From the NCBI GenBank assembly GCA_017962275.1, contig JAGCVQ010000073.1, forward strand, positions 4,543 through 68,542: a DNA stretch of 64,000 nt. The letters are read 5' to 3'. Under the pieces are notes generated by a model. It was not told where the DNA came from and did no database searches. It saw only the letters and a program-made list of their open reading frames with translations. Shown one piece after another: positions 16,655 through 46,259 of the stretch. A program made the position numbers and the translations under genes. This DNA is from Bacteroidales bacterium (GTDB taxonomy: Bacteria; Bacteroidota; Bacteroidia; Bacteroidales; WCHB1-69). The first letter of the stretch is position 1; each line of letters opens with the position of its first letter.

Positions 16655-16718
16655 TTACGTCTTACGTTTTAAATCTTACGTCAAAATCTAACGTCTAACG
16701 TCCTACGTCTCACGTCTA
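16655..16718. repeat. Heptamer array, ACGTCTC family
   Basis: TTACGTC TTACGTT TTAAATC TTACGTC AAAATC TAACGTC TAACGTC CTACGTC TCACGTC. It fills the spacer from the rnfA stop to the next start codon. Confidence 0.85.
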
Positions 16719-17309: not shown

Positions 17310-17340
17310 TTTTTTCTGTTATTTCGTTTGTTGTTTAATA

Positions 17341-17396
17341 GTGATCAGTGAACAGTGATCAGTGAACAGTGATTTGTGATTGGTAAGTAGAAATCG
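17341..17396. repeat. Heptamer array, CAGTGAA/GTGATCA family
   Basis: GTGATCA GTGAACA GTGATCA GTGAACA GTGATTT GTGATTG GTAAGTA GAAATCG, inside the rnfE-rnfA spacer. Confidence 0.85.
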
Positions 17397-17422
17397 AATA
17401 TTGTAGTGAGTACGAGCATCCC

Positions 17423-17457
17423 AACAATTATCCATTATCCATTATCAATTCTCACAA
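17423..17457. repeat. Heptamer array, ATCCATT family
   Basis: AACAATT ATCCATT ATCCATT ATCAATT CTCACAA. It overlaps the rnfE stop codon and last codons. Confidence 0.8.
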
Positions 17458-18065
17458 TGTTTCTTCTTCTCCTCTCTCTTGTTCACGATGAAGCGCACTG
17501 CCGCCATTACGAAACCGAAGACGAGGAACGCGCCGGGAGCCAAGACGAAGATCAGCATGTTGTACTCCGACGGGATGAAGTGGTAGCCGAGGAAGGAACC
17601 GGAACCCAGAATCTCGCGGATGGCACCGATGAGCGTCAGTGCGATGGTGAAGCCGATACCCATGCCGAGGCCGTCAAGCAGCGAATCGAGCACGGTGTTC
17701 TTGTTGGCGAAAGCCTCCGCACGGCCCAGCACGATGCAGTTCACCACGATCAACGGGATGAACACACCCAAGCTGGCGGACAATGAAGGCAGGAAACCCT
17801 GGATCAGCAGATCGATCATGCTCACGAACGTGGCGATGATGACGATGTAGCTCGGGATGCGCACCTTGTCGGGGATGACGTTTTTCAGTGCGGAGATGAG
17901 CATGTTGGACATCAGCAGCACGAAGGTCGTGGCCGCGCCCATACCCAAGGCGTTGGTCACCGAGGTGGTGACAGCCAGCGTCGGACAGCAGCCCAACACC
18001 AAAATCAAGGTCGGGTTTTCTTTGAAAAAGCCCTTGGTCAGTATGTTTAATTTGCTGTTACTCAT
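17445..18065 (-). CDS. rnfE: Rnf electron transport complex subunit E
   Basis: NPTLILVLGCCPTLAVTTSVTNALGMGAATTFVL is the RnfE/NqrD signature; 206 aa. Confidence 0.92.
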   Translation of the reverse strand: MSNSKLNILTKGFFKENPTLILVLGCCPTLAVTTSVTNALGMGAATTFVLLMSNMLISALKNVIPDKVRIPSYIVIIATFVSMIDLLIQGFLPSLSASLGVFIPLIVVNCIVLGRAEAFANKNTVLDSLLDGLGMGIGFTIALTLIGAIREILGSGSFLGYHFIPSEYNMLIFVLAPGAFLVFGFVMAAVRFIVNKREEKKKHCEN

Positions 18066-18642
18066 GATAATCCTCCTTTATTTTCATAAAAATGTCGTAA
18101 GCGCGTTGCACCGCGTCGCAGTAGGCGCGTGACGAAATCGTGGCCGCCGTGATGGCATCCACATCGCCGCCGTCTTTCTTCACCACCAGTTTGAAATCTG
18201 CAGGATTCTGATGGTTGAACTGCATGGCGAAGTCGCTTTTGCTTTTGTTGATGTTGTCGCCCAAACCAGGGGTCTCGTTAGCCTTGAGGACCTCGGTGTT
18301 GACGATGGCACCTTCCGCGTCGAAACCGACCATCAAATCGAAGCGACCCGAGAAGGCTTTCTTGGTGTAGGTCTCGATGCCCGCACCGCAAAGTTCGCCG
18401 TCCTTGCCGATGGCCAAATGCACGGGAATCTCTTCGTTGTCGGCATCCACAATCACAGTATCGCGTACAGTGCCCTCATAATCAGGCAGTACAGCCTGCA
18501 GGGCTTTTTGTTTCTTCTCCAGTTGACCCTGTTCGATAGGTCCTTTGGTGAGGGCATAGACGCCCGTCAATGCCAATGCCGCCAGCAAGGAGATGCATGT
18601 CAGCACAATCACTAATCTCCAGATAGAATCATTCTTTGCCAT
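18058..18642 (-). CDS. rnfG: Rnf electron transport complex subunit G (FMN-binding)
   Basis: An N-terminal TM anchor, then an FMN-binding domain with the flavinylation-type motif DAITAATISSRAY. It overlaps rnfE by 8 nt. Confidence 0.85.
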   Translation of the reverse strand: MAKNDSIWRLVIVLTCISLLAALALTGVYALTKGPIEQGQLEKKQKALQAVLPDYEGTVRDTVIVDADNEEIPVHLAIGKDGELCGAGIETYTKKAFSGRFDLMVGFDAEGAIVNTEVLKANETPGLGDNINKSKSDFAMQFNHQNPADFKLVVKKDGGDVDAITAATISSRAYCDAVQRAYDIFMKIKEDYHE

Positions 18643-18660: not shown

Positions 18661-19626
18661 TTAGTGAGCAAATTGTTTGGGTTTGAAGCCTTTGTTAATC
18701 AACGGCACCACAGCGTTCATCAGCAGGATGGAGAAAGAGACACCCTCCGGATATGCGCCGAAGAGGCGGATAATGATGGTGAGCAGACCGCAGCCGCAGC
18801 CGAACACGATCATACCCCAAGGGGAGGTCGGGGAGGTTACCATGTCGGTGGCCATGAAGCAGGCACCGAGGATGAGGCCGCCGGCGAGCACGTGGATGAA
18901 GGGGTTGACATACACTTCCGGATTCACCAGATGGAAGATGCCGGCCACCACAAAAACCGTGGCGATGAATGACACGGGGATGTGCCACGTGATGATGCGT
19001 TTCCAGAGCAGGAAGGCCGCGCCGATAAGCAGGGCGATGGCCGAAACCTCACCGAAGCTGCCGCCCATCTGTCCGAGGAGCATGTTGGCGTAGGTCGGAA
19101 GTTGCGTCAGGTCGCCGCCCTCCTTGATGAGACCGAGGGTTGTGGGACCCGTCACGGCGTCAGCGAAGTGGAAACTCCAGAGGGGAGTCGGAACCGGCCA
19201 GGAGGTCATCTGCACCGGGAAGGCGATGAGCAGGGTGACACGCGCCACCAAAGCAGGGTTGAACGGGTTGTGGCCCAGACCGCCGAAGGGCATCTTCGCG
19301 ATGCCGATGGCGACCAAAGCACCCACCACCATAATCCAAACCGGAAGGTTAGAGGGCACGTTGAAGGCCAGTAGAAGACCCGTGACCACGGCCGAACCGT
19401 CGTCAATGCTCGGCTTCTGATGCAGCATGAAACGTTGGATGAGGTATTCGAACAGCACGCAACATCCGATGGAGACGAGTGTGAGGATGATGACGGGCAG
19501 CCCGAAATAATAGACGGATACCAGCAACGCCGGCACCAGCGAGAGAACCACCGACCACATGATCTTCTTCACAGACTCGTCGCTGTGCACGTGTGGTGAT
19601 CCTGAAATGTGTAACAGTTTATCCAT
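18661..19626 (-). CDS. rnfD: Rnf electron transport complex subunit D
   Basis: 321 aa and polytopic. SGSPHVHSDESV..., GGLGHNPFNPALVARV and the C-terminal FMATDMVTSP are typical of RnfD/NqrB. Confidence 0.9.
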   Translation of the reverse strand: MDKLLHISGSPHVHSDESVKKIMWSVVLSLVPALLVSVYYFGLPVIILTLVSIGCCVLFEYLIQRFMLHQKPSIDDGSAVVTGLLLAFNVPSNLPVWIMVVGALVAIGIAKMPFGGLGHNPFNPALVARVTLLIAFPVQMTSWPVPTPLWSFHFADAVTGPTTLGLIKEGGDLTQLPTYANMLLGQMGGSFGEVSAIALLIGAAFLLWKRIITWHIPVSFIATVFVVAGIFHLVNPEVYVNPFIHVLAGGLILGACFMATDMVTSPTSPWGMIVFGCGCGLLTIIIRLFGAYPEGVSFSILLMNAVVPLINKGFKPKQFAH

Positions 19627-19672: not shown

Positions 19673-19680
19673 CAAAAGTA
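19673..19680 (-). promoter_or_regulatory. -7 box TActTTTG for rnfDGEA
   Basis: 47 nt before the rnfD start at 19626. Confidence 0.45.
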
Positions 19681-19710
19681 CTCTTTTTTTGAATACGTTG
19701 TGTTTTTAAA

Positions 19711-19801
19711 AGACGTAAGACGTGAGACGTAGGACTTAAGATGTTTGGCTAAGGAATTCGCCCTCTCCAATCCAACGTCTCACGTCTTAGATCTTACATC
19801 A
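19711..19801. repeat. Inverted pair of ACGTCT-family heptamer arrays
   Basis: Left arm: AGACGTA AGACGTG AGACGTA GGACTTA AGATGTT (19711-19745). Right arm: AACGTCT CACGTCT TAGATCT TACATCA (19774-19801). A 28-nt spacer separates them. The pair lies between the T9SS gene stop and the rnfD promoter. Confidence 0.85.
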
Positions 19802-19802
19802 G

Positions 19803-22142
19803 CTATCGTATCAACGTTATGGTTCCCGTTCGCACCTTCTTCTCATCGGGAGTTCCGATGCGGGCGTAGTTGATTTTCCAGAGATAGACGCCTTGTGGTG
19901 CGGGTTTTCCGCCAAGGGTGCCGTCCCAACCCGTGTCGGGGTCGTTGGTGTAGAAAATCAGCTCTCCGTCGCGGGCATAGATGATGAACTCGTAGTTCAC
20001 CACATCGTGCACCTTGGGCAGGAACACTTCGTTCAAACCGTCGGTGTTGGGCGTGAAGGCGTTGGGCACGAAGAAGGCGAAGTTGTCCTCCACGGGCACT
20101 ATCTGGATGGTGTCGTCGCTGCAGCCGTCGCTGTTGGTGACCATCAGCCGCACCGTCATCAGGTCGCTTTCCTGCAGATGATAGGCGTGCGAGGGCTCCT
20201 GCACGTACGAGGAATGTCCGTCGCCGAAGTTCCAGCTGTAGTTGGTGATGTTGGTGCCGGTGGAAAGGTCGAAGAAGAAGACCTCCTCGCCGTTCTCGGG
20301 CTCCGACGGACTGAAGAGGAAGTCGGCGTGCGGGTATCCGGCCACGTGGACGATGTTGTTCAGCACCAGCGAATCATAACAGCCGGGAGCCGTCGTCACT
20401 GTCAATTTTGCGGAATAGTAACCTTCGTCGGCCAACGAGGTGTGCAAGGTGGCGGTAGAGTCGATGTAGGTGTATGTACTGTCGTTATAGATGTTCCATA
20501 GCAGGGTGGCGTAGTTGGGACTGTATTGCGCCTGCCAGGTCACCGGCAGTGGCTGGCATCCGTGGTCGGGTGTGTAAGTGATGTCGATCTCGGGTCGCGG
20601 CACAATGGTCACCTGCACGGTGGCGGTGTCAGTCATACAGCTCCACTGGTCACGGGCCACCACTTTGTAGGTGCCGCTCGATGTGATTTCGCACTCGGTG
20701 GCGAGCCGGTCGGGATGGGTGATGCCCGTGGTGGGGATCCACTCAAAGACCACAGAGTCGGAACCTCTCAGTTTCTCCACCTCTACGTAACGGAGCGTGT
20801 CGCACGCCGTGAAGGCGGTGTCGCGCAAGCGCACGCTGTCGTTGGCGCGCAGATGCAGAATGATGGTGTCGTATGTCCGGAGATGAGGAGCTAAGTTGGC
20901 GAAACCGTCGCAACCCTGCGTGACGACGTACAGCCGCACCTCTTTCACCTGGTTGGGGTTCGAGAACTGAACGGACGGCAGCATTCTGACGTGCACCAGC
21001 TGCACAGTATCGCCGGGAGGATAGTTGAAACTGTTGTTTTCGATGTCGATGGTGTCCCCGTTCGGCTTGATCAGGGAATAGTCAACGTTCAACACCGCAT
21101 CGCCTCCCGTCTCAATCACGATGGAGGTGTTGGCGGTGATGGCCGGGCGTTCGATACTGAACGTGAGGTCGAGGTTACGGCAGTTCTGCACCAGGGTGTC
21201 GCCACCCTCTGACGATCCCCAGTCCTGACCGATCTGCACGTGGGGACTGTAGAAACTGCCCTCTTCGAGGAACACACCGGAGTCGAGGCTGTTGTCGCCC
21301 ACATTGGCCACAGCCAATTTCATGTGGTAGGTCTGGCAGCTGAAAATGGTGGCACCGGCAGTCAGTGCCGTAGTGTAACCATCATATTCCACACCTGAAG
21401 ATAGGTTGTTGCTGACGTAAAAAGAAGAATATGGGGCAGAAGAGCCCGGAGGAATACAGTTGCCTGCGGAGCCTGAACTACCTGGGCCCGCATTGATGGT
21501 GTTGATGGCGACAGGAAGTCCATTTGGATTGGCGGCCGTCACCGTGCCGGGAATAATGGCCACATTCTTCGTTGTGGTATTCAGGGTCACCGGGTCAATA
21601 CCGGTCAGAAAAAAACCGAAGACATCGTTGTAAGAGGAACAAGCCCATTCGGGATACTCCTCGGATGCAAAAATGTAGTTGAAAGCGAATTCATCGGCCA
21701 TGGCGATAAAGTCGAACTCCAAGGAAGCAGATCCATTGATACTACTGCTGGCCAACGGGCCGAGTTGCGATTCCGTATAGTAATTCGAGACAGAACTGGT
21801 GGATCCGGAACTGGAGTTGGGACCTGCTGCCACGGAAACATTGCCGGTTGTCAGCACCAGCCCTGTAGCGAAGGGGAACGCGGAAAAACCGTTACGGTTG
21901 AACGTCCCTATCTGAGGGTACGTGACGTTGCCAGATTGGTTGTTGAACTTGCCCTTCTGCGACGCATCAAACACATCCGGATCCGGAAAGCCCGAAATCA
22001 TCACCCCGTCGCCCTGCAAGTGGTGTTGCAGAATGGTGTCCACATGCGTTCCCTGCAGCGATGTCACCGTCAGATTCTGGTTCTGCGCCTGCATTATGGA
22101 AAATGCCAAAACGATAATCGTTCCCCAAAGAAACCTCTTCAT
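19803..22142 (-). CDS. T9SS cargo: choice-of-anchor-L-like N-terminal domain, Ig/PKD-like repeats, type-B (gliding-motility CHU_C) C-terminal sorting domain
   Basis: Signal peptide MKRFLWGTIIVLAFSIMQAQ. ASLEFDFIAMADEFAFNYIFASEEYPEWACSSYNDVFGFFLTG is choice-of-anchor-L-like. The C-terminus VPNAFTPNTDGLNEVF...GVYLWKINY...GTITLIR is the T9SS type-B domain. The start is set at the ATG that precedes the signal peptide. Confidence 0.85.
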   Translation of the reverse strand: MKRFLWGTIIVLAFSIMQAQNQNLTVTSLQGTHVDTILQHHLQGDGVMISGFPDPDVFDASQKGKFNNQSGNVTYPQIGTFNRNGFSAFPFATGLVLTTGNVSVAAGPNSSSGSTSSVSNYYTESQLGPLASSSINGSASLEFDFIAMADEFAFNYIFASEEYPEWACSSYNDVFGFFLTGIDPVTLNTTTKNVAIIPGTVTAANPNGLPVAINTINAGPGSSGSAGNCIPPGSSAPYSSFYVSNNLSSGVEYDGYTTALTAGATIFSCQTYHMKLAVANVGDNSLDSGVFLEEGSFYSPHVQIGQDWGSSEGGDTLVQNCRNLDLTFSIERPAITANTSIVIETGGDAVLNVDYSLIKPNGDTIDIENNSFNYPPGDTVQLVHVRMLPSVQFSNPNQVKEVRLYVVTQGCDGFANLAPHLRTYDTIILHLRANDSVRLRDTAFTACDTLRYVEVEKLRGSDSVVFEWIPTTGITHPDRLATECEITSSGTYKVVARDQWSCMTDTATVQVTIVPRPEIDITYTPDHGCQPLPVTWQAQYSPNYATLLWNIYNDSTYTYIDSTATLHTSLADEGYYSAKLTVTTAPGCYDSLVLNNIVHVAGYPHADFLFSPSEPENGEEVFFFDLSTGTNITNYSWNFGDGHSSYVQEPSHAYHLQESDLMTVRLMVTNSDGCSDDTIQIVPVEDNFAFFVPNAFTPNTDGLNEVFLPKVHDVVNYEFIIYARDGELIFYTNDPDTGWDGTLGGKPAPQGVYLWKINYARIGTPDEKKVRTGTITLIR

Positions 22143-22226
22143 ATTCGAATATTGTTTAATCATCAAAACGCCTCGTATCCTCTCTATTTTCTGCATAACG
22201 AAAAAAATCAAAAAATGTGGCAAAAA

Positions 22227-24563
22227 TTATTCCACCTCAATTTCATCAACGAAAATCCAAGCCGGGTAACCGTAACCGGTATGTCCTTCAGGCAGTTGGT
22301 GGCCGGTAATGGCCACACGCACATAGCGGGTACGTACGGCTTCGAACGGAATCTCGTGACGCTCAATAGTGCTTTCGCTGCCCCATTCGGCCAACGGATA
22401 GTCCACGTGGGCCACCTCGCGAAACTCCTCGCCGTCGTCGGAAACGCTGATCACGCAGGATTTCGGGTTGTAAATCCAGTCGTTGATGTTGAGGATAGTG
22501 CTGAATGCAACTTTTTGTATGTCAGTGGGTTGAAGCAAGTCGATGGTGGCTTCCAACGGGGTTTCCCAGAATCCTATCCAACGGCCGGTGCGGTAGTTCT
22601 GGCTGCCGTGCAACCCGTCGATGAGCGTGGGGGCGCCGTCGTAGGCGTAATTCACGTGCGGCGGCTCCTTCAGCGAAATCGGTTTCATCGACGATTTCGA
22701 GAAACGGAACTGCGTCTTATATTCCGAAGTCGCGCCGTCGGGACGAATCAGAATGGCCCGGAAGTCGGTGTTTTTCCGAATCTCCACCGGATCGGTGTAG
22801 AGTTCCCCTTTCTTGGGGTCGCTGCCGTCAAGCGTGTAACGGATCTCGCCGTCACCGAACTTGGAGAGCATAACCAAGATGCAGCCCTCTTCATAGTCGG
22901 GCTCCACCTCCGCCTGCAGGTCGAAAATATGGTGCGCATAGTGGTAGTCATACATGTCGTAGATTTTCGCCATCTTGAAGCACCGTTTCACAAAGTCTTG
23001 ATAATCGCGCTGTTGCGGCTTGCACCATTGGAGTTCCGCCAAGGCCGCCATACGCGGCAGGGCGTCATACTCCACGTCGCGGAAACTGTGGACATACTCG
23101 CCCCAGATGTTGGCTTGCACCCCGATGATGTGCTTCTTCTGCCGTTCGTTGAGCTCGTCCGGCAGCGGCTGGAACTTATAGACCCGCTCCACAGGCAGGT
23201 AGCCGTCAGCGAAGACAGGCTCCTCCTCAGGCGTAAGCGACTGGCCCTGACTGAAATAGAGGTAGTCGCCGGGAGTCATCACCACATCGTGACCCTTCTT
23301 GGCCGCGGTAATGCCGCCAGCCGTTCCGCGCCAGCTCATAATCATCGCAGTCTTGCTGATGTCGCCCTCCAAAATCTCGTCCCAACCGATAACGCGGCGG
23401 CCACGAGCCTTCACCACCTTCTCCATGCGGTTCATGACGTAGCTTTGCAGGTAATCCTCTGCAGTGCAGCGGCCGGTGGTGTGAAATCCCAGCTCCTGGA
23501 TCTTCGCCTGACATTTCGGGCATTCGTGCCAGCGGGTCTTGGGACATTCGTCGCCGCCGATGTGGATGATGTCCGACGGGAAAACGTCCATCACCTCGTT
23601 GAGGACATCCTCCAAGAAGCGCATAGCCTCCTCGTTGCCGGCGCAGATCACCTCGTCGGAGACGCCCCAGCGCCGCCACACCTCGTAGGGACCGCTGGTG
23701 CAGCCGAACTGCGGGTAGGAGGCCAGTGCGGACTGCGTATGACCGGGCAGGTCGATTTCGGGGATGATGGTGATGTGGCGTTCGGCAGCGTAGGCCACCA
23801 GGTCGCGAAGCTCGTCCTGTGTGTAGAAGCCGCCGTGACGGATGGTGTCGTAGCTGTTGGTGTTGCGTCCAAGCACGGTGCCGCTGCGCCATGCCCCGAC
23901 CTTGGTCAGCTTGGGGTACTTCTTGATCTCCATGCGCCAACCTTGGTCTTCGGTAAGGTGGAGGTGGAACTTGTTGATATTGTGCAGCGCCATCATGTCG
24001 ATGTAGCGTTTCACGGAATCGAGCGGGAGGAAATGGCGACCGACGTCGAGGTGCATGCCGCGGTAGGCGAACTGCGGATAGTCGCGAACCGTGCCCGCAG
24101 GGAAGTTTACGACATCGATTTTTTCGCCGGCGGGGACGCTTTTGCGAAGGGTCTGGATGCCGTAGAAAACGCCGGGGCGGTCTGCGCCGCGGACGACGAT
24201 TTTGCTTGAGGAGACGTCAATCTGATACGATTCGGGACGCTGGCAGGTGTTGGTGTCAATGATCAGGTAAACGCCGGAGGCTGTCTGTTGGGTCATCGGC
24301 TTGAGCTGGAGTTTTTCGCGCAGGAAATCCGACAGGTATTCGGCGAGGAACTCGGCCTCGCGCCGCAGGGTGTCGGTTTCGGAGTAGAAGATAACGGTGG
24401 TTTCGGAGAGCGCGAACGGTTCCGATTTCGCCAGGGCGATCTCCTTCGGCAGGGGGATGACTTGGTAGTCGGCCTCCGCCACGCGCTGTTTGCACCCGCA
24501 GAAGAGTGCGGCGCAGAACACTGCCGTCAGTAGAATCCCAACTCTTGCGTATAATTTTCCCAT
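22227..24563 (-). CDS. GH20 beta-N-acetylhexosaminidase lipoprotein with a C-terminal discoidin/F5-8-type domain
   Basis: Lipobox LFCGCKQ. GH20 core HLDVGRHFLPLDSVKRYIDMMALHNINKFHLHLTEDQGWRMEIKKYP and HIGGDEC. The track start at 24572 is GTG; the first ATG is at 24563. Confidence 0.9.
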   Translation of the reverse strand: MGKLYARVGILLTAVFCAALFCGCKQRVAEADYQVIPLPKEIALAKSEPFALSETTVIFYSETDTLRREAEFLAEYLSDFLREKLQLKPMTQQTASGVYLIIDTNTCQRPESYQIDVSSSKIVVRGADRPGVFYGIQTLRKSVPAGEKIDVVNFPAGTVRDYPQFAYRGMHLDVGRHFLPLDSVKRYIDMMALHNINKFHLHLTEDQGWRMEIKKYPKLTKVGAWRSGTVLGRNTNSYDTIRHGGFYTQDELRDLVAYAAERHITIIPEIDLPGHTQSALASYPQFGCTSGPYEVWRRWGVSDEVICAGNEEAMRFLEDVLNEVMDVFPSDIIHIGGDECPKTRWHECPKCQAKIQELGFHTTGRCTAEDYLQSYVMNRMEKVVKARGRRVIGWDEILEGDISKTAMIMSWRGTAGGITAAKKGHDVVMTPGDYLYFSQGQSLTPEEEPVFADGYLPVERVYKFQPLPDELNERQKKHIIGVQANIWGEYVHSFRDVEYDALPRMAALAELQWCKPQQRDYQDFVKRCFKMAKIYDMYDYHYAHHIFDLQAEVEPDYEEGCILVMLSKFGDGEIRYTLDGSDPKKGELYTDPVEIRKNTDFRAILIRPDGATSEYKTQFRFSKSSMKPISLKEPPHVNYAYDGAPTLIDGLHGSQNYRTGRWIGFWETPLEATIDLLQPTDIQKVAFSTILNINDWIYNPKSCVISVSDDGEEFREVAHVDYPLAEWGSESTIERHEIPFEAVRTRYVRVAITGHQLPEGHTGYGYPAWIFVDEIEVE

Positions 24564-24590
24564 AGTCGTCACTATTTACAATTGAAACGG

Positions 24591-24598
24591 CAAAGATA
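24591..24598 (-). promoter_or_regulatory. -7 box TAtcTTTG for the GH20 gene
   Basis: 28 nt before the ATG at 24563. Confidence 0.55.
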
Positions 24599-24605
24599 CA
24601 TTTTT

Positions 24606-24640
24606 AATTGATAATGGATAATTGATAATGGATAATTGTT
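24606..24640. repeat. Heptamer array, ATCCATT family (reverse orientation), left arm of an inverted pair
   Basis: AATTGAT AATGGAT AATTGAT AATGGAT AATTGTT. Confidence 0.85.
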
Positions 24641-24738: not shown

Positions 24739-24773
24739 AATAATTATCCATTATCCATTCTCAATTATCCATT
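24739..24773. repeat. Heptamer array, ATCCATT family, right arm of an inverted pair
   Basis: AATAATT ATCCATT ATCCATT CTCAATT ATCCATT. Confidence 0.85.
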
Positions 24774-24780
24774 AAATTCG

Positions 24781-24788
24781 TATTTTTG
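24781..24788 (+). promoter_or_regulatory. -7 box TAttTTTG for gmk
   Basis: 22 nt before the ATG at 24810. Confidence 0.55.
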
Positions 24789-24809
24789 CGCTCCAAAATC
24801 CAACCGATT

Positions 24810-46200: not shown

Positions 46201-46259
46201 CTCACTGCTCTTCACTGTTCACTGTTCACTGTACACTGTTCAATAATCACTAATCCCTC
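46201..46259. repeat. Heptamer array, TTCACTG family (reverse complement of the array at 17341-17396)
   Basis: CTCACTG CTC TTCACTG TTCACTG TTCACTG TACACTG TTCAATA ATCACTA ATCCCTC. It abuts the hflX stop. Confidence 0.85.

Follow-up and report, generated by a model that had tools for sequence, protein, structure and literature searches.

An ancestrally short rnfE-rnfA junction, probably widened by two tolerated heptanucleotide arrays in one clade of rumen Bacteroidales

Why should a compact operon hold one long gap filled largely with short tandem repeats? In an uncultured rumen Bacteroidales, represented by a metagenome-assembled genome of 2.77 Mb and 52% GC, rnfG and rnfE overlap by 8 nt and rnfD and rnfG lie 18 nt apart, but rnfE and rnfA are separated by 135 nt (positions 17310 to 17444 of the window, by which we mean the whole 64,000-nt stretch of DNA that was analysed). 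A first-pass annotation of this DNA reported these spacings, which the NCBIfam and open reading frame coordinates show to be exact, and read the gap as two heptamer arrays that are probably transcribed with the rnf genes and may act at the RNA level. The features concerned are collected in Table 1. The rnf genes are split in this genome, with rnfDGEA in the window and rnfC on another contig (G000 C91:23394-24689). A perfect TAnnTTTG box, TACTTTTG, lies at 19680, 47 nt before the rnfD ATG. Further heptamer arrays, of the TTACGTC and AAGACGT families, flank these genes on both sides, at 16655-16717 after rnfA and at 19710-19741 before the rnfD promoter. The operon is preceded by an 806-aa gene for a type IX secretion system (T9SS) cargo protein with choice-of-anchor L and type B sorting domains (19803-22223, minus strand). 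Farther upstream, an 814-aa open frame (21765-24209, plus strand) runs antisense to a 781-aa gene (22227-24572, minus strand), and the codon-usage caller retained the minus-strand gene only.

Table 1. Genes of the rnfDGEA segment and parts of the rnfE-rnfA spacer, in window positions. Parts of the spacer are read on the sense (minus) strand.
Feature	Position	Strand	Evidence or property
rnfD	18661-19626	minus	NCBIfam, above curated cut-off
rnfG	18058-18642	minus	NCBIfam, above curated cut-off
rnfE, 206 aa	17445-18065	minus	NCBIfam TIGR01948/NF009070, above cut-off; open reading frame list
Array A, stop side: TGATAAT GGATAAT GGATAAT TG, C-free	17427-17450	minus	TRF, 3.4 copies
Centre, 53 nt, non-periodic	17374-17426	minus	Lag-7 identity only 17/46
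Junction motif GGGATGCTCGTA, at inner end of array A, opening the centre	17411-17422	minus
Array B, start side: TCACAAA TCACTGT TCACTGA TCACTGT TCACTGA TCACTAT	17340-17382	minus
rnfA leader, 30 nt, A-rich, ATTAAACAACAAACGAAATAACAGAAAAAAA	17310-17339	minus	Non-periodic
rnfA, 196 aa	16719-17309	minus	NCBIfam TIGR01943, above cut-off

The description of the gap as two heptamer arrays stands in part. Both period-7 arrays are present (TRF scores of 68 and 41), but they make up only about half of the spacer, and the centre and the leader are non-periodic. Lag-7 identity over the entire spacer is 78/134, compared with 38.2 +/- 5.1 in 2000 dinucleotide shuffles, the highest of which reached 55 (z = 7.9). 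The spacer is not an assembly artefact, since five independent metagenome assemblies carry it. Array A overlaps the end of rnfE, as first described: its first unit contains the last rnfE codon, AAT, and the stop TGA (17445-17450, with the stop at 17445-17447), and the array closes all three frames within 20 nt of that stop. Its family, TAATGGA, is found at about 40 loci in the genome. Array B is resolved by TRF with a period of 7 at 17340-17373 and also with a period of 14 (2.4 copies, 100% identity). It is perfect near rnfA, decays toward the centre and ends 30 nt before the rnfA ATG. On the sense strand it has more C than G, lacks AUG and carries TGA in two of the frames. The 107 nt leading up to rnfA are AUG-free. 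Its alternating units are present at 8 loci, several of them 20-35 nt before an ATG. Within array B, at 17341-17361, two palindromic TGATCA words (GATC sites) lie 14 nt apart and are kept in relatives with TCACTGA units.

Both families recur in the window much as the first-pass annotation had it. The family of array B is the reverse complement of an array beside hflX (TTCACTG, 46211-46252), and that of array A forms an inverted pair at 24605-24638 and 24741-24774. The centre has a single genomic copy by blastn, is near-invariant among strains and retains about 70% identity in another species of the genus, G009. We rejected the centre as a dispersed repeat on this copy number and because recurrence is limited to its first 12 nt. 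A small open reading frame in the centre (AUG at +28, 24 codons) was likewise discarded as a conserved peptide, as G009 has TTG and a 17-codon frame and most of the changes affect codon positions 1 and 2. When the centre was matched exactly against JGI metagenome contigs, there were no hits. The A-rich leader has a counterpart in array-free genes of the genome, where A peaks in the same way, at 51% between -15 and -11.

Signals that could make the spacer a transcriptional boundary were looked for on several fronts. The earlier observation that rnfA has no TAnnTTTG box ahead of it is borne out, with none at up to one mismatch on the sense strand of the spacer. A scan of the spacer for sigma-70-type promoters gave matches not above chance, and a terminator scan of the spacer returned no terminator-like hairpin. 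One weak plus-strand TTCGTTTG is present at 17323. The sense RNA of the spacer folds no better than shuffled sequences (minimum free energy of -21.4 against a mean of -21.65 kcal/mol, z = 0.08), and no Rfam family matched anywhere in the window, spacer included, at gathering thresholds. Because promoter box, terminator, stable fold and Rfam match are all missing from the spacer, it is likely co-transcribed within the rnf mRNA, and this view is supported by the transcription of comparable repeats in Xanthomonas (PMC4692102). The same fold value and the lack of a stable dyad stem-loop or terminator-like site dispose of a REP/BIME element or an intrinsic terminator hairpin. Pairing of array A with array B into a long RNA hairpin fails on that fold as well, and the two units match at only about 4 of 7 positions. 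Good folds at this junction are confined to some of the relatives, where they arise from unrelated hairpins.

To follow the spacer over short evolutionary distances, we took five metagenome contigs with identical RnfA as strains of this species. Their spacers measure 135, 136, 137, 142 and 149 nt, and copy number is polymorphic between these close strains in whole 7-nt units in both arrays. One strain (L034) has gained 7 nt in array A, giving 4 units, and the same strain and another (L035) have gained 7 nt in array B as one extra unit at its inner end. The poly-A run before the rnfA ATG varies from 7 to 9 A by strain, and the remainder of the spacer is invariant. The rnfE stop sits in the first unit of array A. 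A slipped-strand contingency (phase-variation) locus was rejected, as RnfE has 206 aa in all five strain contigs despite these gains and the spacer has no promoter box.

Spacer length within the genus, followed across 23 species, spans 18-148 nt. In a tree built from rnfE and rnfA, most of the basal lineages have short, array-free spacers of 30-51 nt, and the genome studied here falls within a derived clade of 11 species. Turnover within this clade is rapid: in one contrast between sister species, arrays spanning 95 nt face a spacer of 18 nt, and in a second, 144 nt of arrays face hairpin-bearing spacers of 109 and 65 nt. The spacer of G009 is clearly homologous with other copy numbers, and in three other species the stop is followed by TGGTTAT arrays and the start is preceded by ATCACnA arrays. 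Three relatives (L010, L002 and L011) carry the dispersed hairpins of the genome at this junction, and the GC-rich hairpins found there in relatives reach fold z-scores of -6.2 (L010) and -3.5 (L004). Of 12 clade members, 7 share a leader core, AAACGAAATAACA..ACA-ATG, regardless of what lies upstream. The conserved part of the junction in the clade is the 30-nt leader, not the arrays.

The rnfE-rnfA gap measures 3-5 nt in the outgroups and 3-30 nt in most Bacteroidales, with a median of 12 nt over 72 loci. The few long gaps outside the genus have arrays of the G type behind the stop and of the C type ahead of the start. In distant Bacteroidales, loci L040 and L041 (both from yak rumen), L105 and L028 have gaps of 112-191 nt and independently show this arrangement, the G-type arrays having 7-8-nt units. 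Around rnf, the present clade has 5.3 period-7 arrays per 10 kb, as against 0.77 for the remaining members of the genus and 0.63 for distant Bacteroidales.

Within its own genome, a spacer of this kind is not exceptional. For genome-wide counts, gene positions came from a crude self-trained caller of open reading frames, which gave 2000 genes and 83% coding sequence. TRF reported 866 period-7 rows, 787 of them non-coding, whereas the non-coding rows at periods 6 and 8 number 16 and 202. A period-7 array is present in 404 of 1426 co-directional junctions and in about half of those between 100 and 250 nt long. The stop codon lies in or touches an array in 293 of the 2000 genes, and 11 genes end with TGATAAT, as rnfE does. 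The unit vocabulary is limited, with 153 canonical units in the 866 rows, of which TAACTGC and TAACTAC are the commonest (65 and 46 dimers in the genome, respectively, against 0 for TAACTGA). As a class, arrays on the start side contain 3 ATG triplets where 16 are expected, and their stop triplets are enriched beyond composition (z = 9.6). The depletion of ATG fits the avoidance of AUG reported near the start codons of Bacteroidetes (PMC6847099).

Two further properties bear on how such arrays come about. Inverted pairs of arrays that are complementary at 6 or more of 7 positions occur 25 times, where 10.4 would be expected (about 2.4-fold). A test for directional growth (treadmilling) gave a residual periodicity in the first 7 nt past the array ends of 0.31 at inner and 0.30 at outer ends, and the strain gain in array B is located at its old inner end. 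A loss of mismatch repair does not account for the arrays, as mutS is intact in all 25 genomes of the genus.

The genome also contains dispersed hairpin families. One is a GC-rich multi-hairpin element of about 140 nt (minimum free energy of -57.5 kcal/mol), which is intergenic, is built of two modules and has more than 100 full or partial copies (for example G000 C25:29688-29829, C22:29783-29927, C82:48507-48634 and C47:56333-56432, among loci L116-L121). Six copies of it gave no match in Rfam. In nine full copies the element is antisense to the genes on either side and terminates in GGGGAATTGGGGTYGCTCGTA, directly followed by a TAACTGC or TAACTAC array. Another is a REP-like hairpin, GTAGAGACGCAAAATTTTGCGTCTCTAC, with about 150 copies (306 half sites, for example G000 C4:17623, C5:13123 and C11:28234). 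At the inner ends of heptamer arrays, the 8-mers of this hairpin occur more often than any other word, and the hairpin occupies the rnfE-rnfA junction of L010.

The arrays follow a strict rule of strand polarity. After stops, 253 arrays have more G than C on the sense strand and 22 more C than G; within 45 nt of a start, 124 have more C than G and 35 the reverse. The rule is replicated in convergent spacers (41:6 and 29:1) and in divergent spacers (15:2 and 21:4), and both arrays of the rnfE-rnfA spacer obey it, array A with more G after the rnfE stop and array B with more C before rnfA. The same families flip strand accordingly: AGCAGTT is found 39:0 at stops and its complement 10:0 at starts, and the family of array B also switches, being G-oriented behind the stop of the gene at 46258 and C-oriented ahead of rnfA. 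Polarity does not mirror local base composition, as array-free spacers show no G/C skew after stops or before starts. Nor does it stem from stop codons alone, as families with a stop triplet in both orientations still give 39:0.

The rule extends to promoters. Arrays abutting a promoter -7 box from upstream show a polarity of 53:6, the C-rich strand being the sense strand of the promoter. The DNA upstream of a -7 box is untranscribed from that promoter, so the polarity is a geometric rule on the nearest gene boundary rather than a property of a single mRNA, and the 53:6 ratio counts against explanations that invoke only the downstream mRNA. At such sites (24588-24604 and 24783-24790 in the window, and 53 other arrays genome-wide), the array often ends 6-9 nt short of a consensus -7 box of the TGTATCTTTGCCGC type that fires away from it, and it occupies the -12 to -45 region of the promoter.

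The polarity rule itself has already been published for Xanthomonas and Nostoc. Rehm et al. (2015) described the heptamers GGGAATC in Xanthomonas and GGGGA(C/T)T in Nostoc PCC 7120, which are mostly intergenic and lie between co-directional genes, with the G-rich strand coding within 50 bp after, or overlapping, a stop and non-coding within 50 bp before an open reading frame (PMC4692102). Those repeats often form convergent pairs, also occur within operons (pecE-pecF) and are mostly transcribed; one family is found per genome, and the GGG or GGGG tracts of the units form G-quadruplexes in vitro (PMC4692102). Arrays A and B agree with the positional and strand rule, A overlapping the stop and B lying 30 nt before the ATG. 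In contrast, their units (TGATAAT/GGATAAT and CAGTGAT/CAGTGAA) have no GGG run, and the genome holds 153 canonical units. The units here cannot form G-quadruplexes because their G residues are isolated, one or two per unit.

Two other classes come close. MacGregor (2015) described TAACTGA direct repeats in Beggiatoaceae, cyanobacteria and a few Bacteroidetes, which lie in the forward orientation before start codons, carry stops in three frames, may overlap the end of the upstream open reading frame and differ between strains by indels in 7-nt steps; binding of S1, Csp or CsrA was proposed for them (PMC4679880). Array B (TCACTGA/TCACTGT) is one or two mismatches away and forward, and TAACTGC and TAACTAC are close variants. 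Unlike those repeats, array B lies 30 nt from the ATG rather than a few nucleotides, TAACTGA dimers are absent from this genome, many families are present and stop-side arrays outnumber start-side ones. As for stops, array B is forward with TGA in two frames only, and array A covers three. The long simple sequence repeats (LSSR) of Mrazek, Guo and Shah (2007), as summarized in PMC4679880, have units of 5-11 nt with heptanucleotides dominant, and an origin by slippage was proposed. Our arrays share the features given in that summary: they are tandem, longer than chance and non-coding, with a preference for 7 nt and polymorphic copy number. However, LSSR as presented there are a statistical class with no positional or polarity rule, and the 7-nt preference is unexplained there too. 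REP/BIME elements resemble the hairpin families of this genome, which are dispersed, fast-turnover fillers of junctions just after stops and stand at this very junction in relatives; the arrays, by contrast, are direct repeats and have neither dyad symmetry nor a stable fold. The arrays belong to a gene-end-polar class that overlaps LSSR and TAACTGA-like repeats.

We consider it probable that the junction was ancestrally short and was widened in one clade by two tolerated heptanucleotide microsatellites, and that it is not a regulatory device specific to rnf. The arrays would arise and turn over by replication slippage, and they would persist where selection tolerates them, the limits being a stop codon at one end and an initiation region or promoter -7 box at the opposite end. 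They would be carried passively on the rnfDGEA mRNA. Locally they may do no more than supply back-up stops in each frame and an unstructured approach to rnfA that is AUG-free over 107 nt. RnfA would then probably be initiated on its own, without coupling to RnfE. Translational uncoupling, one of the functions suggested in the first-pass annotation, would then plausibly be a consequence of the arrays rather than a demonstrated purpose. The broader proposal that the arrays are functional at the RNA level for rnf is not supported: they change in 7-nt steps between strains, sister species have other families, hairpins or nothing in their place, and the same families with the same polarity stand beside unrelated genes, also upstream of -7 boxes and thus outside the downstream mRNA. 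Such rapid turnover between strains and species counts against any role specific to rnf. Slippage alone leaves the 7-nt preference, the strict strand polarity and the limited unit vocabulary unexplained.

An alternative that we regard as unlikely holds that the arrays are cis-elements of the mRNA. They would combine a three-frame stop with a G-poor landing pad, perhaps for a bS1-like protein, to uncouple or set the translation of rnfA, or they would serve as sites of processing or stability. The three-frame stops close behind rnfE, the AUG-free approach to rnfA and the genome-wide enrichment of stops and depletion of ATG in start-side arrays all speak for such a role, as does the reliance of translation initiation in Bacteroidetes on unstructured, A-rich and AUG-poor regions (PMC6847099). 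The S1, Csp or CsrA binding proposed for TAACTGA repeats (PMC4679880) points in the same direction. However, array-free leaders show no G/C skew, conservation resides in the 30-nt leader and not in the arrays, and copy number varies between strains. Congeners carry other unit families, hairpins or only 18-22 nt, and the 53:6 polarity upstream of -7 boxes lies outside the downstream mRNA.

It is quite unlikely, in our judgment, that the spacer is instead a dispersed cassette, composed of a G-rich array, a junction motif with a core and a C-rich array, that was copied in by recombination or an unknown mobility and that slippage only modified. Six other TAATGGA arrays have ends that match array A and its inner flank (TAATTGTT-GGGATGCTCGTA). 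All six end on their inner side in a 12-mer of the class GGGKYGCTCGTW, and four or five of them share a further core of about 40 nt. The 12-mer also stands at the array-facing end of about nine copies of the multi-hairpin element, and this motif common to array junctions hints that an array and its junction may be an inter-locus copy rather than the product of growth in place. The excess of inverted array pairs and the dispersed hairpins at the same junction in L010, L002 and L011 are in keeping with such copying. Yet beyond the 12-mer the 53-nt centre has no second genomic copy, arrays A and B belong to different families and do not pair, and there is no evident sign of a transposase, a target-site duplication or terminal inverted repeats. 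The similarity of the flanks could also stem from arrays seeded by a common short word.

The polarity could in principle be functional in itself, with the C-rich, G-poor strand turned toward the adjacent gene at starts, stops and promoters alike and the arrays acting as symmetric insulators of transcription or translation, for example as Rho-loading pads that stop untranslated or antisense transcripts from running into a gene. We hold this to be very doubtful; if it were true, the strain-variable copy number would tune the ratio of RnfA to RnfE. Least credible, and hardly tenable, is that rnfA forms an independent transcription unit with the rnfDGE terminator, an rnfA promoter or both in the spacer: 135 nt is long for an operon gap and some relatives have GC-rich hairpins here, but the spacer has no sense-strand TAnnTTTG box, terminator-like hairpin or stable fold, RnfA is an obligate partner subunit of RnfE, RnfD and RnfG, and most Bacteroidales have rnfA within 3-30 nt of rnfE.

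Reading the junction as an ancestrally short gap widened by tolerated arrays removes a candidate regulatory element of rnf, as the long gap becomes a by-product of a genome-wide repeat habit. The rnfE-rnfA junction offers a compact orthologous series of short, array-bearing and hairpin-bearing states, with the array habit concentrated in one clade. With about 800 arrays and 153 unit families, the lineage is a rich natural experiment on why heptamers dominate and why the G-rich strand points away from the gene end.
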